A stretch of 64,000 bases of DNA from a virus, in UHGV virus genome UHGV-0120889; one strand, written 5' to 3'. The notes beneath the pieces were generated by a model, which was given only the letters and a program-made list of their open reading frames with translations, did no database searches and had not been told where the DNA came from. Of the stretch, positions 872 to 39,187 are shown one piece after another. The position numbers and the translations under genes are program-made. The stretch's first letter is position 1. Each line of letters opens with the position of its first letter.

Positions 872-1879
872 TTATTCACTTTTCAGAGTTACTTTAACAA
901 CCAGCTCTGGACGGGTGTTAACTGCCAGCATAGAAGTTTCAGATTCAATCTTCTCTTCACGCAGGTATGCAGAGTGTTTATACCACATGTACAGTTCCTG
1001 TGCTGGAGTGTTTGCTTCGTTAACATCGTCTGCCGGAGCAAAGTGCAGCTGGAACATCTGATCAATACCCATCGGCAGAATGCGAGCTTCTTTCTTAGGA
1101 ATATTGCCAGAGATATCTTCGATAAAGGTGATACCTTTATGCTCAAACACACGGTATACGCTGTCTTGACCGCCAGCACCCAGACGGCGACGCAAAGGTT
1201 CCTGAGCAGAGCCGTAATAGGTGTATGCCAGTTCTACCAGCGGGTGATGAGTAACAGCACTGAAGAACTCCGGTGAGCACAGGGCTACAATGCGATAGCC
1301 AGCTGCGTTATCACCAGCTTGCAGTGCGATGTGCAGACGAGCTTCTTCCAGAACCTCCATAGGATCCTGATCTGCTTTTGCAGGGTCGATCTCAACAGAC
1401 TTCTGAGACACACCCCACAGAGTGTAGTAATCATACTGGCAGGTAGCGTCACCAGGTGCATAGGATTTACCCAGAATAGCCTGGAACAGCGCTTTCTCAC
1501 GCAGTGCTTCATGGGAAACACGGATACGGCGAACAACGCGGGTCACTACGTCCTGAACAGTTTTCGGAGCATCAGGGGTGAAGTAACGACGGAAGTTCTG
1601 GACATCTGCAGCAGTGATGCCTTTATCCAGAGGGAAGAACGGGATGTTCAGGTTTTTAACCTGAGCACGTTCATTACCAACGTAGTTACGCTCACCACCA
1701 CGACGGCGTGCTGGAATGTCGGTTACAACTTCATCAACACGCTCAATCTGAGCAATTGTTGAGGTGCCGAGACGAGTTTCGAACAGATCCATACCGGTAA
1801 TCAGGCGAAATTGACGCGGAACAAGGTCCAGAGTAGCACCTAAATCGACAATGCCAAATTCATCTTTACGAGTAATCAT
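872..1879 (-). CDS. major capsid protein (lambda gpE-like family)
   Basis: 335 aa ORF in head module between decoration-like gene and next structural gene; size and overall sequence character recall lambda E-type major capsid proteins; RBS-spaced ATG. Confidence 0.65.
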   Translation of the reverse strand: MITRKDEFGIVDLGATLDLVPRQFRLITGMDLFETRLGTSTIAQIERVDEVVTDIPARRRGGERNYVGNERAQVKNLNIPFFPLDKGITAADVQNFRRYFTPDAPKTVQDVVTRVVRRIRVSHEALREKALFQAILGKSYAPGDATCQYDYYTLWGVSQKSVEIDPAKADQDPMEVLEEARLHIALQAGDNAAGYRIVALCSPEFFSAVTHHPLVELAYTYYGSAQEPLRRRLGAGGQDSVYRVFEHKGITFIEDISGNIPKKEARILPMGIDQMFQLHFAPADDVNEANTPAQELYMWYKHSAYLREEKIESETSMLAVNTRPELVVKVTLKSE

Positions 1880-1931
1880 TTATTTCTCCAAAGTAAAACT
1901 TAAATATTTTTCCCGAACAATTTAGGGCTTA

Positions 1932-2318
1932 TTATTCACCAATAGTCTGGACGTGAACTTTGTTACCTAAAGCTTCCAACTTATCCAGAATTCTTTGGTC
2001 TGCTTTAGCTCCATCTGCACCTAACAGCATGTCTTTTGCAAAGGTGACACCATGGACGGCAACAACCAGGTTATAGGATTGTCCTACTTCTAACGGTTTT
2101 GCAAGATGAACCGTACCAGCATCTTTGACAAGAGCACGGTCAACAAGAACGCCGTACACATCAGAACCGTCTGCGTTAGCGATGGTCCCGGTTTTTGTTA
2201 CAACAGTGCCAGCGTGGTGATGCTCTGTCAGTGTTACCTTAATCTCTTTAAAATTGTAGCCAGCATCGCTAGAATCAACTTTGCCGAGCACGATATCAGA
2301 ATATTGAGCGGTAATCAT
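1932..2318 (-). CDS. head decoration protein (lambda gpD-like)
   Basis: 128 aa, Gly/Ala/Val-rich, immediately upstream of capsid gene as in lambda D-E arrangement. Confidence 0.5.
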   Translation of the reverse strand: MITAQYSDIVLGKVDSSDAGYNFKEIKVTLTEHHHAGTVVTKTGTIANADGSDVYGVLVDRALVKDAGTVHLAKPLEVGQSYNLVVAVHGVTFAKDMLLGADGAKADQRILDKLEALGNKVHVQTIGE

Positions 2319-2338
2319 TTATTTCCCCCGTTAATGTC

Positions 2339-3316
2339 TTATTTGTTAGATTCTGCACGTGCACGAGCAAGTGCTTTTGCAACGTTTTCAGCAAGAATTT
2401 CTTCTGCGGATTTTGCAATATCATCCACAACAGGTTCGCCATCATTACCATGTTCAGTGGTGGCAAACTCTTCTTTGGTTTTATGCACCTCTGCTTCCAG
2501 CTCTTCAATTTTTGCTTGAGCTTTCTCCAGCATAGCTACGATAGGTTCGTTAGCTTTTTCCAGCATGAAGTCAACTAGGGTTGCATGATCTTCTTCACCA
2601 ACAAAGCTTAAAGCTTGAGCCTTAGTCAGCATTTTAGCTTTTTCAACTTCAACCTGGGCCTTGATGATTTCTTCAGCTTTACTCTGGGTTGCTTTCAGCT
2701 CTTCTACTTGCTTCAGCAGATCCAGATACTCTTTAGTTTTGGTTACGTCCACCGGATTCTCCTCGGTATTTGCGGATTTTGCAACATCATCCACCTCGGC
2801 AGTTTTATCCACCTCAGCAGGTTCCTGTACCGCCTTGATCAGGTTCCCTTCTTTATCGAAGAGATCAGCGGTTACTTGTTCAAAAATCTGTTGTGTTTTT
2901 AACAGGCTGTACTGATCTACCACACTAAGCTGCTTACCTTCTTTTGCAGCTTTATGAATGGTCACGTTATCACAACGCTCTTCCAGCCATGCAATACAAG
3001 ACTCTGCGTCAGCTTGCGCCCATTCCCAATCAGGATGCTCTTTGGCCCAAGCCTCCTCTTCAATCTCAAAACCAAGCATGTGTGCAAGTGCTTTAGCATC
3101 ATCATACCACATATCGAAGAAACGACGCAGGTATTCTTCAAAACTAAGCTCCACAGTAACTTGGCGAAGTGCCTTAACAATATCGTCTGTTAACTGCTCA
3201 GGCTTAAGATCACTCTTCATCAAAAGAGATACAGGTCTGTTGTTAGCGCTATAGCCTTGCGCCTTATGGCACAGGGCAATCCCCTTCTCTTTAATAGTAA
3301 TCGTTTTTTCAGACAT
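2339..3316 (-). CDS. putative scaffolding protein
   Basis: 325 aa, highly charged and Ala/Glu/Lys-rich with predicted coiled-coil character, between portal-side genes and decoration/capsid genes. Confidence 0.45.
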   Translation of the reverse strand: MSEKTITIKEKGIALCHKAQGYSANNRPVSLLMKSDLKPEQLTDDIVKALRQVTVELSFEEYLRRFFDMWYDDAKALAHMLGFEIEEEAWAKEHPDWEWAQADAESCIAWLEERCDNVTIHKAAKEGKQLSVVDQYSLLKTQQIFEQVTADLFDKEGNLIKAVQEPAEVDKTAEVDDVAKSANTEENPVDVTKTKEYLDLLKQVEELKATQSKAEEIIKAQVEVEKAKMLTKAQALSFVGEEDHATLVDFMLEKANEPIVAMLEKAQAKIEELEAEVHKTKEEFATTEHGNDGEPVVDDIAKSAEEILAENVAKALARARAESNK

Positions 3317-3735
3317 TATTCATTGCCCTCTTCTACAACACTGATCCCGAAGTTTACGTTGGTAATTTCACCAGTTTCTTCATCAACATTACCTGTTGCC
3401 TGAATGCTTAGGCCACCAACAATGCCAGCCTTCTTAGCTTCCCATAATTCAGGATTATTGTATTTAACTTTAGCAACCCAAGAGCCAGCCTTGATGACCT
3501 GCTCAGTGCCAATTACTACAACATCAAACTCTTCTTGAATCCACGTCTTTTCAATAGTGAAAGCATCTGTAGAGGTCAAGTGAAAAAGGTTTTCAGAAAC
3601 TAGGCCTGCGGCGTATGCTGCGTCCCAGTTATCTTTAGCCTTTTTGATGGTGTCTTTACTCATCCACTCACCGTGAGCATCTTTAGTGTCAGGCTCGTAG
3701 ATGATTTCGTAGGAAATCATTTCTTCCTGTGGCAT
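3316..3735 (-). CDS. putative head morphogenesis/maturation protein
   Basis: ORF track extends to 3891 and overlaps portal; internal ATG at 3733-3735 (MPQEEMISYEI...) with GGGGAA upstream removes the overlap. Position between portal and scaffold is where head proteases usually sit; function is inference. Confidence 0.35.
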   Translation of the reverse strand: MPQEEMISYEIIYEPDTKDAHGEWMSKDTIKKAKDNWDAAYAAGLVSENLFHLTSTDAFTIEKTWIQEEFDVVVIGTEQVIKAGSWVAKVKYNNPELWEAKKAGIVGGLSIQATGNVDEETGEITNVNFGISVVEEGNE

Positions 3736-3802
3736 CTTATTCCCCATGTGGATTATTTTATCACGCCAAAGGAGGTTTTGCAACCCCCTGTGTTGATAAT
3801 TT

Positions 3803-5359
3803 TTAATTTTCCATGTTGGATATGGAATTATCTCTGGTTGATGACATCTTAGAAGTGCCGTTGCCAGTGGATCCTGCAGCCATTCCATCACCAGCCCTAC
3901 TGATGTCCTGGCCCAAGAGCTTCATCAGCTCTTCCTGATCCATGTCCTCGTCAAATCTTTCATCAAACCCGCCTACTTCAAGAATCTTATTAATTACTGC
4001 AGGAGTTTTTGGCAAGTAACCTACAGCACCGATCCTCTGGACAAACTTGGAGAAGCTCTCCATATCCACTTCTTCAATCAGACCAGGTTTCAGTTTAGGC
4101 ATATCATCATCTTCAAGGATGATACCATTCAATGCCAGAAGCTGCGGAATAAGATCTTTATTGAAGGCCTCAGTGATAATATCTATATCACGCTGAACAA
4201 AATGACCATGGATAGACTGTTTTGACTCAGACAGAGAGAAGGACCCAACGTTATCGTTACCGAGGTTAATAAAGCCAGCACCGAAACGGTCAAGAATCGC
4301 CTTCTTACGGGCATCAATCAAATCTTTAGTGGAATACTGCTTACCCATACCGTCAACCCCCTTCAGGGTCATGGAGTAAAGCTCTTTACCAGACTTATCT
4401 CTATCAGACGGAAGTATAAAGAAACTTTGCTCACCACTATGGGCGTTTGCTGCGTCAAGCATAAGGTCTGCAACCATTCTCCCTTCCATTGAATTCGGGT
4501 CAATGCTGGCCTTGTTCAAAATATTGGAAGGAATTTTCAGCTCAAGCACACCACCAAGGTCTTTGGAACAGCCAACAACCTCAAGGTTTTCAATCAGAAC
4601 TTTCTCACGGAAAGATCTGTAGCAACCTATCATCGGTGACACACCTGCAGGGTTAGATTCTGTTCCTGACAGGGTCATGAGCATAAGCTTTTTAGCAGGG
4701 ATGAAAATTTCAGGCTCATTAAAGCCTTTTGAAGGCATTGCAGCAAGAGGTCCAGCCCAGCGTGCATTCTGAGTGTTTAGAAATGCATTAGGTGATTGAT
4801 AAATACCTGTCAGTGTTCTACTATTCTTGTCAAAGACAAACGGCTCTGATCTGGACAAACTGGCCTGAGGTCGGAATGCAATTTTATCAATAAGAAGCAT
4901 CCCGGCATATTTACCTTCTTTCTCTCTGCGGTATACTTTCTCAAACAGTGAAAAACCATACTCGTTAAAGGTAGCTGCACTTCTTGCAATATCTCGAAGA
5001 GTTTGTTGGTTTGCCAAATTACGCAAAGAATACTCTATAAGCTCGGCAGCTTTCTTAGAGTCTTCACTTTTAACATTATAAAGGATCTTAAAATCATTAA
5101 ATGCTTTCGTGATGAAAACATATTTTGTATCTAAGGCAGTAGCAACTGTGGAATCACATTTCATAGTCTCCACTGTAGCAATCAGCTGAGGCCAACGCAA
5201 TTCCTCAACCATCATAGATTGCGATTCTGCCATAATTTGGGAAAGTGCGCCAGAACCGATCTCACTCATACGAACATTATGAGTTGGTGCGCCTGCGTTC
5301 CCAGATTTATTCACAGTTTTGGCTGTGGCGTTGTGTTTCCTGCGGTTCTTTTTGGACAC
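3803..5359 (-). CDS. portal protein
   Basis: 518 aa ORF immediately downstream of terminase large subunit on same strand; size and position typical of portal. Confidence 0.65.
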   Translation of the reverse strand: MSKKNRRKHNATAKTVNKSGNAGAPTHNVRMSEIGSGALSQIMAESQSMMVEELRWPQLIATVETMKCDSTVATALDTKYVFITKAFNDFKILYNVKSEDSKKAAELIEYSLRNLANQQTLRDIARSAATFNEYGFSLFEKVYRREKEGKYAGMLLIDKIAFRPQASLSRSEPFVFDKNSRTLTGIYQSPNAFLNTQNARWAGPLAAMPSKGFNEPEIFIPAKKLMLMTLSGTESNPAGVSPMIGCYRSFREKVLIENLEVVGCSKDLGGVLELKIPSNILNKASIDPNSMEGRMVADLMLDAANAHSGEQSFFILPSDRDKSGKELYSMTLKGVDGMGKQYSTKDLIDARKKAILDRFGAGFINLGNDNVGSFSLSESKQSIHGHFVQRDIDIITEAFNKDLIPQLLALNGIILEDDDMPKLKPGLIEEVDMESFSKFVQRIGAVGYLPKTPAVINKILEVGGFDERFDEDMDQEELMKLLGQDISRAGDGMAAGSTGNGTSKMSSTRDNSISNMEN

Positions 5360-5461: not shown

Positions 5462-6583
5462 TTAGATAAAACGCTTGAACATAGAAGGTGATGAGATTGA
5501 TGGAATCACACAAGGAAGTGCTACTTCCTCTTTCTCCAGGAAATTAATAGCAGAAGCTACACAGTCAGCCCAGTCGTCTTTTCTGTTAAATGTTGATCTT
5601 TCCCCGTTGAATTTTTCAAGTTCAGTCAGAAATGCTTCCAGAGTATCAGGATGGAAACTGGATTTTACAATCCTCACCATTCCTTGTTGGGCAAGATTGG
5701 CAAAAGGTGAGAACCTTGTCAGTTTAGATTTGTTGGAAGGCATTGGGTCTTCTTCAACCCTAAACCCTTCGGCAAGCAAGGATCTGGAGGAGGTTAAGAA
5801 CTCACTCTTACCTGCCTGACCGGGGTCCACAGAGAATACGATTATACAATCATCACCATCAAACTGCGCCTGTTTCCTGATGATCACATCTCGTTCACCA
5901 GCCTTTTTACAGAACTTGCCTTCTAGACCTGTGGAATACCTCCCGTCATCCACGTTCTCAGGACAATAATCACCGGACAGGTAATAAAAGCCGTCGCTAT
6001 CTTTACTTACCTTAACACTGGCGGTAAAGTCAGGAAATTTATTACCGGAAGTTCTCTCGGTTCCTGCCTTATCCCATGCCCTGCAAGATACTGATCCAAG
6101 GGGTACTCTATCGGCATCACGAAGGAAAGATCTTTGAAAATAGTTTGCGCCCTCAGGCTTTGCAAACCAGTTACCATGAAGAAGCTGAGCTTTTTCCAGT
6201 TCCGGCAGACCTTCAAGGAAAGCAAGGTATTCTGGGTTGTCTCTTAAGCAAACAGGATTATCGAATATTGTTGCGCCTATAAACGAGAATGACAACGGTC
6301 TTGGCTTGATCTCCACACCAAGTCCGTTAACCGTGGTGTATTTCTCTATCAACTCTTCTTTAGAGTCCCCCCAGATAAATTCACCGTCGCGTCGGATAAA
6401 ATATCTTTTCTTACCGCATTTCTCCGGATCTGGATACCCTTCATCGTCCAACCACCACCTAACCAGTTTGGCAAGCATGTGTTCTGAATCGGGGTTACAG
6501 CTGATAACCATTCTTGATGGATACTTTGACTGAGATCGCAGACGAGACATCAGATAGTCTATCTGCTCCCATTCGAATTGTGT
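5462..6583 (-). CDS. terminase large subunit, exon 2 (C-terminal part of ATPase plus nuclease domain)
   Basis: Frame is open from 6583 (after in-frame TAA); begins TQFEWEQIDYLMSRLRSQ...MVISCNPDS, the expected continuation after Walker B. Exon start is placed at the proposed 3' splice site. Confidence 0.7.
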   Translation of the reverse strand, partial: TQFEWEQIDYLMSRLRSQSKYPSRMVISCNPDSEHMLAKLVRWWLDDEGYPDPEKCGKKRYFIRRDGEFIWGDSKEELIEKYTTVNGLGVEIKPRPLSFSFIGATIFDNPVCLRDNPEYLAFLEGLPELEKAQLLHGNWFAKPEGANYFQRSFLRDADRVPLGSVSCRAWDKAGTERTSGNKFPDFTASVKVSKDSDGFYYLSGDYCPENVDDGRYSTGLEGKFCKKAGERDVIIRKQAQFDGDDCIIVFSVDPGQAGKSEFLTSSRSLLAEGFRVEEDPMPSNKSKLTRFSPFANLAQQGMVRIVKSSFHPDTLEAFLTELEKFNGERSTFNRKDDWADCVASAINFLEKEEVALPCVIPSISSPSMFKRFI

Positions 6584-6899: not shown

Positions 6900-6902
6900 T
6901 TA

Positions 6903-7328
6903 ACCCTCATCGAAGCAAACCATGGTGTACTCAAGCCCTTGATGGTTAAGCTTATCTTGTACATACTCCATGTGGCAGTATTTTACAACAGCTCCCTTTT
7001 TGCTTCTATCCCACTTGCCAGTGTTCGGATCAAACCGTGGAAAAATGAACTTATGATCCTTCTCTCTGAACTTTGGCTTAATGTTTTCAGGCAGATCACT
7101 ATAAATAGCTACCGCTTTAGGCCATAGTCCACCCTCACCTTCCAACTGCGGGGTTGTTCTTCGGAACATAACCACAGAGCTGTGGGGGTCATCAATAATT
7201 TTAAGTGGCATCAATTGCAAGAGGAACGACTTGCCAGACCCTGCGGCACCGCCGATTACCAAAATATCTGCATCGTTTTCGAGGATCATCTTCTGCTTTT
7301 CAGAACACGGTCCGTAAATCTTAGACAT
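6903..7328 (-). CDS. terminase large subunit, exon 1 (N-terminal ATPase: Walker A and B)
   Basis: Walker A VIGGAAGSGKSF and Walker B MVCFDEG; frame hits TAA (6900-6902) immediately after the Gly codon, which is the first codon of the intron. Confidence 0.75.
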
Positions 7329-8431: not shown

Positions 8432-8508
8432 TGGTCTCCACGGAGTGATTCGAACACTCGACCTCCTGATCCCAAATCAGGCGCTCTACCAAGCTGAGCT
8501 ACGCGGAG
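8432..8508 (-). tRNA. tRNA-Pro (anticodon UGG)
   Basis: Hand-folded cloverleaf: acceptor CUCCGCG/CGUGGAG, D-arm GCUC..GAGC, anticodon stem CCUGA/UCAGG with loop UUUGGGA, T-arm GAGUG-UUCGAAU-CACUC, encoded CCA. Confidence 0.8.
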
Positions 8509-8519
8509 TATTTATTATT

Positions 8520-8594
8520 TGGTGGCCCTGGGTGGAATTGAACCACCGTCTGGCGATTATGAGTCGCTTGCTTGAACCTTCCAGCTACAGGGCC
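8520..8594 (-). tRNA. tRNA with anticodon CAU (Met or lysidine-modified Ile)
   Basis: Acceptor GGCCCUG/CAGGGCC, anticodon loop CUCAUAA, T-arm GGUGG-UUCAAUU-CCACC, encoded CCA; Met versus Ile2 cannot be told from sequence. Confidence 0.7.
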
Positions 8595-8595
8595 A

Positions 8596-8671
8596 TGGTG
8601 CTGATGGCAGGACTTGAACCTGCAACCTATTGATTACAAATCAATTGCACTACCAATTGTGCTACATCAGC
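8596..8671 (-). tRNA. tRNA-Thr (anticodon UGU)
   Basis: Acceptor GCUGAUG/CAUCAGC, D-arm GCAC..GUGC, anticodon stem AUUGA/UCAAU with loop UUUGUAA, T-arm GCAGG-UUCAAGU-CCUGC, encoded CCA. Confidence 0.8.
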
Positions 8672-8679
8672 AAAAAAGG

Positions 8680-8776
8680 TGCTAGGTGATGGAATCGAAC
8701 CACCTATGTATTCAACGACTACCTCGTCTATTTTCAGGATTAAAAATCCTCGCCCTTGCCAAAGGGCTTACCTAGC
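8680..8776 (-). tRNA. atypical long tRNA-like gene (about 97 nt), anticodon uncertain (candidate UUU) or pseudo-tRNA
   Basis: Perfect 7-bp acceptor GCUAGGU/ACCUAGC, D-arm GCCC-UUUGGCAA-GGGC and T-arm GGUGG-UUCGAUU-CCAUC, but about 30 extra nt between a short AGGA/UCCU stem (loop UUUUUAA) and the T-arm; no encoded CCA. Confidence 0.4.
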
Positions 8777-8874
8777 TCAGTATGTTGACCATGTTGCTAG
8801 TCGGCGATGACGACTGTAACATTTGATAATCCGGTTCTGCTTCCGGCTTTCGCTTAATTACAAGGTCAACAATA

Positions 8875-8965
8875 TGGCTGAGGGTAATGGAATCGAACCA
8901 TCATCGAGTCATCCTCAACGGGACGGTTTTCAAGACCGCTTGAGCACCATTGCTCCCTACCCTCA
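8875..8965 (-). tRNA. tRNA-Ser (anticodon UGA), long variable arm
   Basis: Acceptor UGAGGGU/ACCCUCA, anticodon stem GCGGU/ACCGU with loop CUUGAAA, long variable arm, T-loop UUCGAUU, discriminator G plus CCA. Confidence 0.7.
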
Positions 8966-9079
8966 TTTATAAACAATACTGATAATGACACTGATTTTCG
9001 AGCAGTTAGTGACTAGTATAAACGACGATAAATATCAATGCCATTATCTGTATGATTTATGCATTTAAAACTATAAATT

Positions 9080-9166
9080 TGGTGGGGAGTGGTGGAGTCG
9101 AACCACCCGAGTCGTAATGACAATAGATTTACAGTCTACACCGCTACCTCTACGGGATAACTCCCC
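9080..9166 (-). tRNA. tRNA-Tyr (anticodon GUA), long variable arm
   Basis: Acceptor GGGGAGU/ACUCCCC, anticodon stem GUAGA/UCUAU with loop CUGUAAA, T-arm GGUGG-UUCGACU-CCACC, encoded CCA. Confidence 0.75.
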
Positions 9167-9170
9167 AATT

Positions 9171-9245
9171 TGGCACCCCGTACTGGACTCGAACCAGTGT
9201 CAACGGCTTAGAAGGCCGCTGCTTTATCCACTAAGCTAACAGGGC
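9171..9245 (-). tRNA. tRNA-Arg (anticodon UCU)
   Basis: Acceptor GCCCUGU/ACGGGGU (two G.U), anticodon stem GCGGC/GCCGU with loop CUUCUAA, T-arm ACUGG-UUCGAGU-CCAGU, encoded CCA. Confidence 0.75.
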
Positions 9246-31883: not shown

Positions 31884-32162
31884 ATGAGCTGCGAAAAATC
31901 TTTTTTCATCATCATTTACGGTAAGGATAACTGCCCACATTGTGTCAGAGCAAAAGAATTTGCAATCAGCAAAGGTCTGCCTTTTGTATATAAGACACTT
32001 GGCGAGGGCTACACAAAAGAAGAGCTTATTGAGAAGTGCAGTCCAATCGTCCCCCGAACGTTGCCGCAGATCTTCTTAGAAAGCGATCTTGACAGTATCC
32101 ATATAGGCGGTGCCGACGATTTCATCTCTTTTGTTAAGAATGGTTTTGGAGAGAAAAAGTGA
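31884..32162 (+). CDS. glutaredoxin-like protein (NrdH/Grx family)
   Basis: 92 aa with CPHC redox motif, between nrdB and nrdD. Confidence 0.6.
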   Translation: MSCEKSFFIIIYGKDNCPHCVRAKEFAISKGLPFVYKTLGEGYTKEELIEKCSPIVPRTLPQIFLESDLDSIHIGGADDFISFVKNGFGEKK

Positions 32163-33019
32163 AAGTTGTAAAACGGGACGGTAGAGAAGAGTTCTATAAC
32201 GGAATTAAGGTGATCAAGGCGGCAGAGTCCGCCTTACTTGAGTCTGGACATACTGAAGAAGAAGCTTACCGGATCGCTTGTGCGGTTAATGAAGTTGTTG
32301 CTAACAATCTGCCAACCGACCAGTGCACGATCTCTGTAAAAAATATCCATATCCTTGTTGAAGATGCTCTTATGGATATGGGTTTAAAATGTGCAGCCAG
32401 AGAATACATCCAGTATAGACAGACAAGAGATAATAACAGAGAGGCAGGTGGAAAACTACTTGCAGATATTAGTGGCTTCTTGGATCGAACTTGTGATGAA
32501 TTTACAAAAGAAAACGCAAATAAGCCCACTAATCATGTACACACTCATCGTGACCTGCTTGCAGGCATCCTTAGCAAACACCTTGCATCAACACAGATCC
32601 TGCCAGACCGTGTTTCAGAAGAGCACAATAAAGGCTTCATCCATGTGCATGATCTTGACTACTTGATCAGTCCGTTAACAAACTGTTGTTTGGTAAATTA
32701 TCCAGATATGTTGGAAAACGGATTCAACATTGGCAACGCCCATGTCAGTAAGCCGAAGTCAATAGGGGTTGCAACAACAATCCTTAGTCAAATCTCTAGC
32801 GCGGTAGCTAGTGCTCAATATGGTGGTCAGACTATGAGCCATATTGATCATTATCTGGCACAGTATGCTGAAGCAACCTATGAGAAGAACCTTAAATTTT
32901 GCCAGGAACATTGGTTGCCGGATGCTGAAACTGTTGCAATGCAAATGACAGATAAAGATGTATTTGACAGCATGCAGACTTTGCTCTATCAAATCAATAC
33001 GTTAACCTCTGTCAACGGT
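32159..33019 (+). CDS. nrdD: anaerobic ribonucleotide reductase NrdD, exon 1
   Basis: Ends ...YQINTLTSVNG matching NrdD (E. coli EYEVNTLHTANG as recalled); frame hits TAA at 33020-33022, the first intron codon. Confidence 0.8.
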
Positions 33020-33173
33020 TAACAAACTGGCCGTTGTAAAACTCTCCTAACCTCATAAGAGGGGTCGGTAAATCCGGCTAACGGGGAACGCTAAGGCGAA
33101 AGCTATGCCAATCCCGTGACTAGTTCTTACAGGAGTTGGAACGGTTGTAACGACTAACGAAAGGCAGAGATGC

Positions 33174-33202
33174 TTGACAAACATTTCTGAACCAAGTAGT
33201 GT
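33174..33202 (+). promoter_or_regulatory. sigma70-like promoter inside nrdD intron, upstream of HNH ORF (TTGACA-N17-TAGTGT)
   Basis: TTGACA at 33174-33179, TAGTGT at 33197-33202. Confidence 0.4.
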
Positions 33203-33243
33203 AGGGGTTAGTTGAAATACTAACTTCGAAATGGAGAGGCTCT

Positions 33244-33777
33244 ATGAAAAAGATCATTCTTAATGGTGAAGAATCGAACTATGTGATTGATGAGGTTGGA
33301 AACGTATACGGAAAACGTGGAATGCTACACCCAATATTGTGGGGAGGTTATGGAAAAGGTAACAAGCATGTTAAACGCCGTTATATGTACTCTTTCAACC
33401 ACAAAGGTAAAAAGATTCGAATCCAAACCTCAAGGGTTGTTGCCTTGTATTGTTTGCCAGATGTCCCAGAAGACCCTGAAAACTGGGAAGTGAATCATAA
33501 AGATGGCAATACATTGAATGATCATCCGTCTAACCTAGAGTGGGTTTTGCCGGAAGATAATAAGAGACATGCTTTCCGAACAGGACTTTGTCCAGGTAAG
33601 TGCTATAGGAAAGTGCAGGCATACAAAGGGAAAATCTTGGTGGGTGAATATCCTTCACTCTATGCCTGTGCAAAAGCCTTAAATTTGAACGTAGGTAACG
33701 TTCACAGGGCTATCGAAGGAAATGCCGAAGGTAAGCATCTCACAATAAAGGGTTATTATCTTATTGAAGTAGAGTAA
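33244..33777 (+). CDS. HNH homing endonuclease (intron-encoded)
   Basis: EVNHKDGNTLNDHPSNLEWV is a classic HNH motif; 177 aa inside the intron. Confidence 0.75.
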   Translation: MKKIILNGEESNYVIDEVGNVYGKRGMLHPILWGGYGKGNKHVKRRYMYSFNHKGKKIRIQTSRVVALYCLPDVPEDPENWEVNHKDGNTLNDHPSNLEWVLPEDNKRHAFRTGLCPGKCYRKVQAYKGKILVGEYPSLYACAKALNLNVGNVHRAIEGNAEGKHLTIKGYYLIEVE

Positions 33778-33816
33778 GAGATAGTCTGGCCCTGTGGAAA
33801 CACAGGGAGGAGACAG

Positions 33817-35079
33817 CAGACTCCATTCATCACATTAAGTTTAGGACTAGATACCTCGGTCTTTGGTAGAATGATTACCAAAAACTACTTGAAAGTCCAC
33901 AAAATGGGTCTTGGTGAAGAACGTATCACACCTGTGTTCCCTAAAGTGCTGTTCTTCCTGGAAGAGGGTGTCAACATGAACCCTGGGGATCCTAACTATG
34001 ATTTGAAACGATTAGCTCTGGAATGCTGTGCAGAACGTATCTATCCTGACTTCGTATCTGTACCACTAAATAGAAAAGTGACAGGCTCGACAGATGGCAA
34101 AGTAACTAGCATGGGTTGCAGGAGTTTTCTTAGCAAATACAATGACTTGGAAACAGGCGAGGAGAAATACCTTGGCAGATTTAACTTAGGCGTTGTTAGC
34201 CTTAACCTGCCAATGATTGCGGCAAAAGCTAAAACGGAAGGTGTTGATTTCTTTGCAGTTCTTGACGAATACCTGGATCTTGCATACGAGGCTCACCTTG
34301 TAAGGGTTAATCGTCTAAAAGGGACAAAGGCAGGGCAGAACCCTATCATGTGGTGTGAAGGCGCTCTTGCTCGCCTGGACCCTGAAGAGAGTATTGATAA
34401 ACTCTTCTATGACGGGTACGCTTCCATCAGTATTGGGTATATTGGTGTGTATGAAACCTGTCAGATTTTGGGCAGAGAGGGTGACAAGGCTTTAGCTCTT
34501 GGAATCCTTCAGCACATGAGAGATGCTTGTGAGCGACACAAGAAGGAAAGTAGACTAGCGTTTAGCTTGTACGGCACCCCTTCTGAGAGTCTATGCTATA
34601 AAGCTGCAACCTGTCTGGATCGTGAATATCCTGAAGTGTTGAAGCACGAGCATGAATATCTCACCAACAGTTTCCATCAGCCAGTATGGATCAATAGCTC
34701 TCCTTTTGATAAGTGGGAGTATGAGGAAGGTTTTGCTATGATCTCCTCTGGTGGCAACATCGGATACGTAGAGACACCAAATCTGAAAAACAACTTAGAT
34801 GCTTTGGAAGCTCTTGTTGATTTCGGATATAAACACATTATGTATTTTGGTATTAACCAACCTGTGGATAAATGTCTCAAGTGTGGTTTCTCTGGTGAGT
34901 TCAGTGCAACAGCTAAAGGCTTTGTATGCCCAGAGTGTGGAAACCATGAAGAGGGAACGATCAGTGTAATTCGACGTGTGTCTGGATACCTTTCCAGTCC
35001 TAACTCCCGTCCTTACAATAAAGGTAAGCAAGCGGAAGTTATCGAGCGAGTTAAGCACTACGGAAGTTGTGGTTGCTGA
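33817..35079 (+). CDS. nrdD: anaerobic ribonucleotide reductase NrdD, exon 2
   Basis: Starts QTPFITLSLGLDTSVFGR...ITPVFPKVLFF...GDPNYDLKRLALECC, continuing NrdD; C-terminal glycyl-radical/zinc region; spliced protein about 707 aa. Confidence 0.8.
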   Translation, partial: QTPFITLSLGLDTSVFGRMITKNYLKVHKMGLGEERITPVFPKVLFFLEEGVNMNPGDPNYDLKRLALECCAERIYPDFVSVPLNRKVTGSTDGKVTSMGCRSFLSKYNDLETGEEKYLGRFNLGVVSLNLPMIAAKAKTEGVDFFAVLDEYLDLAYEAHLVRVNRLKGTKAGQNPIMWCEGALARLDPEESIDKLFYDGYASISIGYIGVYETCQILGREGDKALALGILQHMRDACERHKKESRLAFSLYGTPSESLCYKAATCLDREYPEVLKHEHEYLTNSFHQPVWINSSPFDKWEYEEGFAMISSGGNIGYVETPNLKNNLDALEALVDFGYKHIMYFGINQPVDKCLKCGFSGEFSATAKGFVCPECGNHEEGTISVIRRVSGYLSSPNSRPYNKGKQAEVIERVKHYGSCGC

Positions 35080-36290: not shown

Positions 36291-37079
36291 ATGGGTCGAG
36301 CTAAAGAAACAAAACGCATGCGTGATGAAGCTAGAGAGGCTCGCAAATCTGATCGCCTGCGTAAGGCTGCTGAGAAATTTGCTGACGAAAGAGAGCACAC
36401 CGCTCCAGCTCTCCGACCAATGAATAAGAAGCAGCAAAAGTATCTTGATTATCTAGGGTCACGTAAGATTATTATTGTAAACGGTGTGTTTGGATCTGGT
36501 AAGACATTCATGGCATCTGCATATGCAGGTGATCTTCTGCGTAAGAACGAGATTGATAAGATTATTGTTGCACGTCCTTACGTTCAGACAGGAAAGACTT
36601 CAGGATTTAAACCTGGAAATGCAATGCAGAAACTGTGGCCCTATCTTCGAAGCATGATGGACACGATTTGTCGTCGTGTTGGCAAAGGTGCTTTTGCCGC
36701 AATGCTGGGAGACGGTCAGAACAGCCGTATCGAGATTTGTGAAGTTGAAAGCATTCGTGGTCGTAGTTTCGATGAGCGATGCTTTGTCCTGATTGACGAG
36801 GCACAGCAAACTAACCCTGAAGAAATGTTGTCAATTATCACAAGGATCTCTGATCAAGCCACCCTTGTAATTATGGGTGATAATAGCCAACGTGACATCC
36901 CTGGTAAATCTGGCCTTGCATGGGTGACGGATTTCTTTACTCGTCATCCAGATCCTGAGGTTGGAATGATCAGCTTTGATAGTCCAGACGATGTCGTTCG
37001 TTCTGGGTTGGGTCGTCAGATCGCACTCAATCTTATTGAGGATCGTGCAAATCATATTTGGACCCCTGTTTCCGAGTAA
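36291..37079 (+). CDS. phoH: PhoH-like ATPase
   Basis: P-loop GVFGSGKTF and downstream LIDEAQ, IMGDNSQRD motifs typical of PhoH. Confidence 0.75.
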   Translation: MGRAKETKRMRDEAREARKSDRLRKAAEKFADEREHTAPALRPMNKKQQKYLDYLGSRKIIIVNGVFGSGKTFMASAYAGDLLRKNEIDKIIVARPYVQTGKTSGFKPGNAMQKLWPYLRSMMDTICRRVGKGAFAAMLGDGQNSRIEICEVESIRGRSFDERCFVLIDEAQQTNPEEMLSIITRISDQATLVIMGDNSQRDIPGKSGLAWVTDFFTRHPDPEVGMISFDSPDDVVRSGLGRQIALNLIEDRANHIWTPVSE

Positions 37080-37123: not shown

Positions 37124-37152
37124 TTGACAAATAGGTAAGCTTTAGATATTAT
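37124..37152 (+). promoter_or_regulatory. sigma70-like promoter (TTGACA-N17-TATTAT)
   Basis: TTGACA at 37124-37129, TATTAT at 37147-37152; preceded by hairpin AAGGGTGG-TTATT-CCACCCTT (37085-37105). Confidence 0.55.
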
Positions 37153-37492: not shown

Positions 37493-37552
37493 AGGTAAAT
37501 GTGAATCAGGTTTAAATAAATAGCTTTCAACTTCCAATATTAAGGATTTCTC

Positions 37553-38602
37553 ATGAATTTAACACCTCGCAGCACCATGGTACACGGCATGAAAGAAAAA
37601 CAGAACGGTTTCGAACCTATGAGTAATAAAATGTTTGGTATGCCGGGTGGTATTATGGAAACATACAGCTACCCAACACCTGTTGTTGACCACGTTCTTT
37701 ATATCGACGATTTGGAAGACCTGCAGGATCATATGTCTCGTCTGCAGACGATCCGTATGGCTCAGCCGGAAGAAAGCATTCGGGTGATCATCAATAGCCC
37801 TGGGGGTTGCGTGAACATTGCAATGGCTTATCTACAGGCATTCCGCGAGTCTCAGGCAAGCGTTGTTGCACATGCTGAAGGGATGTGCTGCTCTGCGGGA
37901 ACAATCTTATGGCTGGGTTGTAAAGAACGCACTGTGGCTCCGGACACAGAATTTATGTTCCACTACTATCAAGGTGGCACCTATGGTAATGGTGTGAACA
38001 TGAATACTCAGGTCAGCTACTGGAAAAAACGTTTTGAACGCCTGATCGAAAAATACTACGGTGGGGTGCTGACAGAAGATGAGATCGCATCCATCACAGC
38101 TGGTGGTGAAGTGTGGTTGGACGGAGAGGAGCTGGCAGCTCGAACTGGAGCCATCGTTCTGGATGAAGGCAACATACAGCGCATCCAGAACGGACAAAAA
38201 CCTAAAAAGCTTTTGGCAAAAGGTGATGAAGAAGGTGTGCTAGGTGAAGCAGGTCTTCCGGAGATTCACCAGTGCACCTCTTTAGATGAGCTAGTTCATG
38301 CTGTTGAATCTGCAAAAGCGGGTGGTTCGAAAGGTGATGTTCACACTGTGTTCCTGAACCTGCAGATGGAAAGTGGTGAGACCGTTAAGATTGCCTTAGG
38401 CGAGATTACCTCAGAAGATCTGCAGCGATTCTCTGTCGTTGAACTTCAAGACATTCTGTCCCAATTGAAGACAACCCTGAACGGCGGTGAAGAGGTTAAG
38501 GTAAAAGATAAGACTCGCAAGCGTCTGGTGGACAATATTATTAAAACAGCAAAAGAGCTCAATGAAAAAATCCTGGGTGCAGGAATTGTCGAAGAAGCTT
38601 AA
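37553..38602 (+). CDS. ClpP-family serine protease-like protein with C-terminal extension
   Basis: VIINSPGGCVNIAMAYLQAF and MCCSAGTILWLG resemble ClpP motifs; 349 aa, so about 150 extra C-terminal residues. Confidence 0.55.
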   Translation: MNLTPRSTMVHGMKEKQNGFEPMSNKMFGMPGGIMETYSYPTPVVDHVLYIDDLEDLQDHMSRLQTIRMAQPEESIRVIINSPGGCVNIAMAYLQAFRESQASVVAHAEGMCCSAGTILWLGCKERTVAPDTEFMFHYYQGGTYGNGVNMNTQVSYWKKRFERLIEKYYGGVLTEDEIASITAGGEVWLDGEELAARTGAIVLDEGNIQRIQNGQKPKKLLAKGDEEGVLGEAGLPEIHQCTSLDELVHAVESAKAGGSKGDVHTVFLNLQMESGETVKIALGEITSEDLQRFSVVELQDILSQLKTTLNGGEEVKVKDKTRKRLVDNIIKTAKELNEKILGAGIVEEA

Positions 38603-38653: not shown

Positions 38654-39187
38654 ATGACTTGTGCTCGAAAACCTGATGAACAACGTAACGCCTACGATGA
38701 GTATGTGACACCGGAGTGGTGTGCAGAAGGGCTGTACGACCTTATTCCGTTCCCAGAAGACTGGACCTACTTAGAGCCTTGCAGGAATAGTGCCTCAGGT
38801 GTGTTCTACTCCCGTATGCCGTTAGGATCTGCATGGGGAGAAATCCAAGAAGGTGTTGACTATCTGAATACAGAATACAACCATGTTGACTGTATTATCA
38901 CCAACCCACCATACAGTTTGGCTCGTGAGTTTGTAGACAAGGCGTTGAAAGATGCTGACGTAGTTATTATGCTTTTGCGTCTTAATTTTCTGGAAAGCAA
39001 AGCCAGATTTGAATGGTGGCTTGATAATGCACCTACCACTGTGATCACAATATCTAAGCGTCCATCTTTTCAATCAAATGGCAGAACTGACGGGCAAGCA
39101 TATGCATATTTTGTGTGGGATAAGAAAAACCGTTTAGGCTTGCCGCCATTTATGTGGTTGGCACCCCCAGAGGTAGACCTGAAATGA
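38654..39187 (+). CDS. DNA N6-adenine methyltransferase (small Dam-like)
   Basis: Motif IV IITNPPY; 177 aa. Confidence 0.5.
   Translation: MTCARKPDEQRNAYDEYVTPEWCAEGLYDLIPFPEDWTYLEPCRNSASGVFYSRMPLGSAWGEIQEGVDYLNTEYNHVDCIITNPPYSLAREFVDKALKDADVVIMLLRLNFLESKARFEWWLDNAPTTVITISKRPSFQSNGRTDGQAYAYFVWDKKNRLGLPPFMWLAPPEVDLK

Follow-up and report, generated by a model that had tools for sequence, protein, structure and literature searches.

Genes for proteins with the ClpP fold, as sampled from a profile search and read for context on their contigs, fall into three settings: the cellular tig-clpP-clpX-lon locus, phage head modules in which the gene lies between those for the portal and the capsid protein (its product with or without a long C-terminal extension), and phage genes outside the head module. 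Cellular ClpP belongs to MEROPS S14 (PF00574). The head class comprises the ClpP/S49 prohead proteases of the lambda gpC-like and HK97-like portal-ClpP-capsid types, exemplified in our sample by contigs L015, L016 and L017. T4-like phages use gp21 as their prohead protease. The non-head class is the 'ATP-dependent protease' or 'ClpP-like protease' family of PHROG 5410 and 1827, with rV5 ORF122, the phage 4MG protein, ICP1 ClpP, BF23/T5-like ORF45 and KVP40-type ClpP among its members. The function of the T5-like member was given as unknown as of 2023, and a literature search for any characterised phage ClpP-like protein found none. Patchily distributed phage ClpP proteases have been proposed to be deployed against the host (Iyer et al., 2021).

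The window analyzed here is a 64,000-nucleotide stretch of viral DNA (UHGV virus genome UHGV-0120889), which over bases 1-25000 shares 99.8% identity with Escherichia phage slur16 (rV5-like, genus Vequintavirus). It contains an open reading frame of 349 aa whose start codon is preceded by a Shine-Dalgarno sequence, and the gene called there by an earlier first-pass annotation is real. The gene corresponds to rV5 ORF122, a member of PHROG 5410, entered in the 2013 genome paper of rV5 as 'ClpP (ATP-dependent) protease subunit', and approximately 119 phage records carry it at 96-99% identity (96-98% at the DNA level) under the labels 'ClpP-like protease', 'ATP-dependent protease (subunit)' or 'hypothetical protein'. 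In a profile search the protein matched phrog_5410 with an E value of 1.3e-154 over aa 24-345 of 349, and phrog_1827, which holds shorter relatives, with an E value of 2.2e-40 over the core only. It is thus the already annotated ClpP-like serine protease of rV5-type coliphages, an object known and named, and a member of the non-head family without material difference from it, including its position among early and nucleotide-metabolism genes. The finding in the window changes little, since annotations of the gene go back to the rV5 genome paper and the idea of a host-directed protease is already in print; its residual value is as a pointer to a widespread phage protease family that has a doubtful 'ATP-dependent' label and lineage-varying C-terminal appendages, and whose gene is frequently linked to that of phage PhoH, a marker gene. 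The gene and its surroundings are as follows.

36291-37079, plus strand: PhoH-like ATPase gene, the upstream neighbor conserved in seven of 12 non-head lineages
37124-37152, plus strand: sigma-70-like promoter, TTGACA-17-TATTAT, 11 of 12 matches, corresponding to rV5 P121
37181-37492, plus strand: 103-aa open reading frame (rV5 ORF121) between the PhoH-like and ClpP-like genes
37542-37546, plus strand: Shine-Dalgarno sequence AAGGA, 6 nt 5' of the ATG of the ClpP-like gene
37553-38602, plus strand: ClpP-like protease gene, 349 aa, supported by the open reading frame, Pfam, PHROG and the rV5 annotation

The gene sits in a block of ribonucleotide reductase, thymidylate synthase, PhoH and methyltransferase genes, and the strong sigma-70-like promoter lies 5' of both the 103-aa open reading frame, which had no match in a Pfam scan, and the ClpP-like gene. 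The rV5 late-promoter-like motif TGGTAAAATA was uninformative as to timing, with 16 one-mismatch matches against 6.9 expected, scattered over both strands.

The Pfam family CLP_protease (PF00574) matches aa 59-168 at 48 bits, above the cut-off of 20.2 (E 1.7e-12), and phmmer matches ClpP chains in the PDB with E values of about 4e-8. An AlphaFold2 monomer model built on 24 family members has pLDDT values above 90 over approximately aa 46-212, and the best 50 Foldseek matches to this model in the PDB are all ClpP (50/50), with target-normalized TM-scores of 0.56-0.73. Pfam, PDB, AlphaFold2 and Foldseek evidence therefore agrees with the first-pass annotation, which had placed ClpP-like motifs in the first 190 aa or so and had named a profile search for the family as a check. 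The protein divides into the following parts.

37553-37684, plus strand: N-terminal region, aa 1-44, predicted to be disordered in the monomer model
37685-38188, plus strand: ClpP-fold catalytic domain, aa 45-212, by Pfam, PDB, AlphaFold2 and Foldseek
37892-37894, plus strand: codon of Ser114, the aligned counterpart of the catalytic Ser in E. coli ClpP
37961-37963, plus strand: codon of His137, which aligns with the catalytic His of ClpP
38108-38110, plus strand: codon of Glu186, at the site of the ClpP catalytic Asp
38189-38281, plus strand: linker, aa 213-243, of low confidence in the model and probably disordered
38282-38599, plus strand: family-specific C-terminal alpha/beta domain, aa 244-349

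The N-terminal region carries the motif FG.PGG...Y.YP (F28, G29, Y40 and P41), conserved across the family. In a pairwise alignment, Ser114 and His137 correspond to Ser97 and His122 of E. coli ClpP (mature numbering); the E. coli sequence used behaves like the ClpP chains of the PDB and a metagenomic cellular ClpP. All 24 close family members have Ser114 and His137, and so do all of the distant phage relatives examined, down to 19-27% identity, a set drawn from ICP1, Pakpunavirus, Barbavirus, Otagovirus, TaPaz, T5-like and KVP40-like phages, one jumbo phage and two metagenomic contigs. The oxyanion-region motifs are likewise invariant across the relatives examined. The position of Asp171 in ClpP, before the strand that follows helix F, is Glu186 in the window protein; relatives differ here, with Gln in Seunavirus and the majority of close relatives, Asp in the ICP1 and T5-like proteins and Glu in a number of others, and the residue is acidic (Glu or Asp) in nine of the 12 tabulated non-head lineages. 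The triad alignment named as a further check in the first-pass annotation thus bore out the Ser and His and failed for the Asp: the change to Glu is conservative in this phage, but the alignment does not preserve the site as Asp, and the Gln of most close relatives could mean reduced or differently regulated activity. No match to Peptidase_S49 (PF01343) was found in the window protein or in any of the 24 family members at E values up to 5, and in place of the Ser-Lys dyad of SppA/S49 enzymes a conserved His occupies the ClpP His position.

Roughly 140-150 residues follow the ClpP core, a long C-terminal extension as first described. Its tail is charged, as was also noted (39% of the last 28 aa, against 31% of aa 244-349 as a whole), but the description of it as coiled-coil-like does not hold: the model gives a disordered linker, with pLDDT below 50 at aa 222-240, and a small, compact alpha/beta domain at aa 244-342 arranged helix-strand-strand-helix-helix-helix, in which the second helix is short, the last two are longer and the longest helix has approximately 21 residues. 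Linker length and sequence vary among relatives, whereas F293, E297 and R322 in the C-terminal domain are invariant in the family, and the domain is a conserved feature of the Vequintavirinae-like branch (4MG, Hena1, Seunavirus and others). A phmmer search with aa 200-349 against 1.84 billion representative proteins returned family members only, apart from two spurious repeat-rich proteins; Pfam scans of 24 members gave nothing consistent for it; and Foldseek against BFVD, a collection of predicted viral protein structures, gave one significant match, to a protein of 303 aa, itself probably a member of the family. The ICP1 protein (326 aa) and a metagenomic relative on contig L014 (337 aa) also carry extensions, but homology between these and the C-terminal extension of the window protein was rejected (hhalign probability below 1%), and in Pakpunavirus, Barba, T5-like and other phages the extension is very short or missing. 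The protein thus combines a catalytic core conserved across lineages with an appendage that is specific to its own lineage and flexibly tethered, and the appendage is most simply read as a recruiting or partner-binding module. A nested scaffold of the lambda C/Nu3 style, made from an internal start, was considered and rejected, as the only internal Met of the C-terminal domain, M273, is not conserved in relatives.

On balance we incline to the view that the protein is a non-structural, ring-forming ClpP-fold peptidase with a Ser-His(-Glu) active site, which would lack canonical docking to ClpX or ClpA and, through its tethered C-terminal domains, would engage a substrate or partner in the infected cytoplasm. 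The peptidase would be made from the replication and nucleotide-metabolism gene block, and its subunits would self-assemble into ClpP-like rings enclosing the active sites. Canonical docking of host ClpX or ClpA would be missing, and for that reason the protein would not be a classical ATP-dependent protease subunit. The C-terminal domains, on a flexible tether of about 30 residues, may recruit the substrate or partner, and what the enzyme degrades during takeover would be proteins or peptides of the cytoplasm, either the host's or early ones of the phage, and not capsid proteins. That the protein targets host proteins, as the first-pass annotation proposed, is plausible, and the proposal matches the hypothesis published by Iyer et al. 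(2021).

A classical ATP-dependent ClpP subunit, forming a tetradecamer fed by host ClpX or ClpA or mixing with host ClpP so as to redirect Clp proteolysis, is an unlikely alternative. ClpP is the best match in both Pfam and the PDB, and the window protein is like cellular ClpP in its fold, in the positions of the catalytic Ser and His and in its retained handle region. Heteromeric ClpP1P2 complexes with a third residue other than Asp are also known in bacteria. The docking surface argues otherwise. In E. coli ClpP the pocket for the IGF/LGF loops of ClpX and ClpA is made up of eight largely hydrophobic residues, Y60, Y62, F82, I90, M92, F112, L114 and L189. The window protein has R, I, E, H, E, T, A and G at these sites, so that seven of the eight positions are non-hydrophobic (the alignment is at approximately 20-27% identity and is anchored gap-free by the INSPGG and catalytic-Ser motifs). 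In a second cellular ClpP, from the tig-clpP-clpX-lon locus, seven of the eight sites are hydrophobic or aromatic, with His at the Y60 site. Because R77, E99, H107 and E109, four of the charged or polar pocket residues, are invariant in the 24 family members, the pocket appears to have been replaced by a conserved polar surface and not simply eroded.

Other core features of cellular ClpP differ as well. The Arg170-Asp171 motif of ClpP is linked to ring-ring coupling; this Arg-Asp pair, which precedes strand 10, becomes Gly-Gly and then Glu in the window protein. The segment of ClpP helix A becomes a proline-rich YSYPTP, and the axial loop sequence is different too. The extension of 140 aa is an addition, and the window protein is no more than about 20-27% identical to cellular ClpP. 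In the cellular locus used for comparison clpX adjoins clpP, whereas the window gene has no adjacent clpX, and the annotations of the 17 kb around the gene in a relative and of the rV5 early region include no AAA+ unfoldase. The protein would thus have the fold and probably the chambered-ring principle of ClpP while lacking several defining features of the ClpXP/ClpAP core, and the ClpX and ClpA motors of the host are probably not its partners. The seven non-hydrophobic positions of the docking pocket make the 'ATP-dependent' label doubtful, and for the family this annotation is probably wrong.

The preferred reading, a non-structural peptidase, also has to be set against a role in the capsid. 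The head genes lie at 872-5359 on the minus strand, 32-36 kb from the ClpP-like gene, in agreement with the earlier estimate of some 30 kb on the other strand, and run in the order Mu-type portal, 139-aa protein, 325-aa acidic protein, decoration protein and lambda-E-type major capsid protein. This is the canonical order of portal, XkdF-like protease, scaffold-like protein, decoration protein and major capsid protein. The small candidate protease that had been suspected in this module is the second of these genes.

3316-3735, minus strand: XkdF-like serine protease (Peptidase_S78_2), 139 aa, likely capsid maturation protease

Its product scores 65 bits, where the cut-off is 24, with Pfam Peptidase_S78_2 ('putative phage serine protease XkdF'), and the open reading frame may extend to a 191-aa form with its start at 3891. 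The 139-aa protein belongs to the phrog_1530 family and the 325-aa scaffold-like protein to phrog_2970. In virions of W70, a phage of the same subfamily, mass spectrometry detected both the 'capsid maturation protease' of phrog_1530 and the protein of phrog_2970, and in virions of the rV5-related phage CB7 the corresponding 'prohead core protein protease' and the adjoining protein were detected.

In the capsid alternative, the ClpP-like protein would be brought into the procapsid by its C-terminal domain, in the manner of lambda gpC-type protease-scaffold fusions, and would share the processing of scaffold or internal proteins with the XkdF-like protease or take it over. The ClpP-fold core followed by a C-terminal extension is shared with the ClpP/S49 prohead proteases, as is, presumably, independence from an ATPase, and resembles in particular a 364-aa protein encoded on contig L015 between the portal gene and homologues of gpD and gpE. 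Several PHROGs labelled 'head maturation protease' match the window protein, the best at 7e-22, but the full-length match to the non-head PHROG 5410, at 1.3e-154, is far stronger. Unlike the genes of ClpP/S49 prohead proteases, the window gene is not between the portal and capsid genes; that slot is filled by the Peptidase_S78_2 protein together with a separate scaffold-like protein, and the ClpP-like gene lies at a distance, on the other strand, in a nucleotide-metabolism block with a sigma-70-like promoter.

Virion proteomes point the same way. The ClpP-like protein (locus 122) is absent from the rV5 virion proteome of 19 proteins, an insensitive dataset, and no Clp protein is mentioned in the published virion lists of CB7 and W70; thus, unlike ClpP/S49 head proteases, it has not been reported in virions of the subfamily, in which the head module's own protease and scaffold-like protein were both found. 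In ICP1, Barba, TaPaz, PE09, T5-like and KVP40-like phages the homologous genes are found away from the head module, and in the KVP40-like phage D485 the gene is between dihydrofolate reductase and replication genes. The T5-like homologue BF23 ORF45 occurs at a low level in purified virions, a point for the capsid alternative and one that makes minor particle association in some lineages possible, but BF23 has a separate prohead protease, ORF164, and the Barba phage has a head-module peptidase separate from its ClpP-like gene. With the head module's own protease, the virion data, the gene context, the promoter and the homologues taken together, the first-pass view of a second protease distinct from the prohead protease is upheld; that the ClpP-like protein is not the head protease of this phage is well supported, and the capsid alternative is quite improbable.

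The upstream neighbor suggests another alternative, in which the ClpP-like protein and the PhoH-like ATPase form a two-gene module, with PhoH supplying nucleotide-dependent handling of substrates or with both acting on a shared RNA-protein target such as ribosomes. In seven of 12 non-head lineages, drawn from annotated phage records and from contigs that encode such genes, the ClpP-like gene is preceded on its own strand by a true PhoH-like ATPase gene, with zero to three small open reading frames between (rV5-like phages, Seunavirus, ICP1, Barbavirus, Otagovirus PE09, Acinetobacter phage TaPaz and one metagenomic contig). The PhoH and ClpP-like genes overlap in Otagovirus PE09 and are separated by a 2-nt gap on the metagenomic contig, and between PhoH-linked lineages both the ClpP-like and the PhoH proteins have identities of only 22-37%. 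The conserved charged patch in place of the ClpX pocket would suit a different partner. In the flanks examined, PhoH was not found in the other five lineages (Pakpunavirus, T5-like, KVP40-like, RAS14 and contig L014); a 118-aa protein labelled 'PhoH-like' beside the ClpP gene of Pakpunavirus PsIn matches no PhoH, so the label is false and PsIn was dropped from the linkage count. These myoviruses may owe part of the pattern to common descent, and synteny alone could account for it. PhoH proteins are, moreover, described as RNA helicases related to SF1 helicases and not as protein unfoldases (Iyer et al., 2021). We accordingly give a functional link between PhoH and the ClpP-like protein a low probability, and the two-gene module is hardly a likely reading of this locus.

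A pseudo-protease, with a ClpP fold but weak or no catalysis and a role in binding or scaffolding, would fit the missing canonical Asp and the Gln of most close relatives, but is very improbable given that Ser114, His137 and the oxyanion-region motifs persist down to 19-27% identity and that the third position is acidic in nine of 12 non-head lineages.

The preferred reading of the window protein as a peptidase independent of ClpX and ClpA has a wider, speculative form that we regard as a long shot: non-head phage ClpP-like proteins in general may form a distinct class of ClpX/ClpA-independent proteolytic rings whose lineage-specific appendages choose the target and which, in many lytic myoviruses, are coupled to PhoH. 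The ClpP-like and PhoH proteins might, for example, jointly dismantle a host ribonucleoprotein or stress-response machine during takeover. If true, a ring and PhoH module of this kind would give phage PhoH its first mechanistic context.

A PhoH-like ATPase gene lies immediately 5' of the non-head ClpP-like gene, on the same strand, in seven of the 12 phage lineages sampled (rV5-like phages, Seunavirus, ICP1, Barbavirus, Otagovirus PE09, Acinetobacter TaPaz, and one metagenomic contig). Zero to three small ORFs separate the two genes in these lineages, represented by the window and compared loci L004, L005, L008, L009, L010, and L013, and the linkage is kept although protein identity across them is only 22-37%. 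In the window the genes are arranged as follows:

36291-37079, + strand: PhoH-like ATPase gene, upstream of the ClpP-like gene
37553-38602, + strand: ClpP-like gene
38654-39187, + strand: small N6-adenine methyltransferase-like protein, the next gene 3' of the ClpP-like gene

No PhoH gene was found in the flanks of the ClpP-like gene in Pakpunavirus, T5-like, KVP40-like, RAS14, or metagenomic contig L014 sequences. A 118-aa protein adjoining the Pakpunavirus ClpP-like gene in Pseudomonas phage PsIn (L007:4606-4962) is labelled 'PhoH-like protein' and was rejected as a candidate; the label is a probable misannotation, since none of four PhoH queries matches the protein and its sole match is a 114-aa ORF of Otagovirus PE09.

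The product of 38654-39187 has weak matches, under the cut-off, to Pfam Dam and EcoRI_methylase, and the ClpP-like gene of Barba phage is likewise followed by a DNA adenine methylase gene. A few kb 3' of the ClpP-like gene, the window has the equivalent of rV5 ORF133 (NC_011041 94702-95157), a 151-aa product of the early-gene block with one transmembrane segment; two weak peptides underlie its 'structural protein (MS evidence)' tag in the rV5 paper. The ClpP-like gene also occurs in 18 records named 'Campylobacter phage' (MG065684.1, MG065653.1, and 16 others), some of them partial genomes of 35-87 kb, at ~98% identity to rV5-like coliphages; these are probably mislabelled or contaminant sequences.

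The protease of the head module and a tRNA cluster are annotated on the opposite strand:

3316-3735, possibly out to 3891, - strand: XkdF-like protease (Peptidase_S78_2)
8432-9245, - strand: seven clustered tRNA features (slur16 annotation)

RefSeq slur16 calls the XkdF-like protease 'DNA methyltransferase'. The apparent source of this label is PHROG 1530, and the protein matches the profile of that group only at positions 244-373 of 379. The annotated form is 139 aa, and an upstream GTG opens a 191-aa ORF, which better fits the ~21 kDa protein reported from virions of relatives. The tRNA cluster includes an odd 99-nt entry, 'tRNA-???(atcc)', at ~8678-8776, where rV5 annotates no tRNA at the equivalent position.

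Two genes are in pieces, anaerobic ribonucleotide reductase (nrdD, 32159-35079, + strand) and the large terminase subunit:

32159-33022, + strand: nrdD N-terminal piece, ATP-cone and NRDD profile positions 1-154
33244-33777: HNH_3 homing-endonuclease ORF, within the ~850 bp between the nrdD pieces
33871-35079, + strand: nrdD C-terminal piece
5462-6478 and 6900-7328, - strand: two annotated pieces of the large terminase subunit

Rfam models of group I and group II introns gave no hit above threshold in the nrdD region, and in the relative EduardKellenberger nrdD is annotated as one unbroken ORF. The terminase pieces are ~420 bp apart. This split agrees with the rV5 record, where the terminase is a join of three segments, and with the 'Introns in terminase' section of the rV5 paper.
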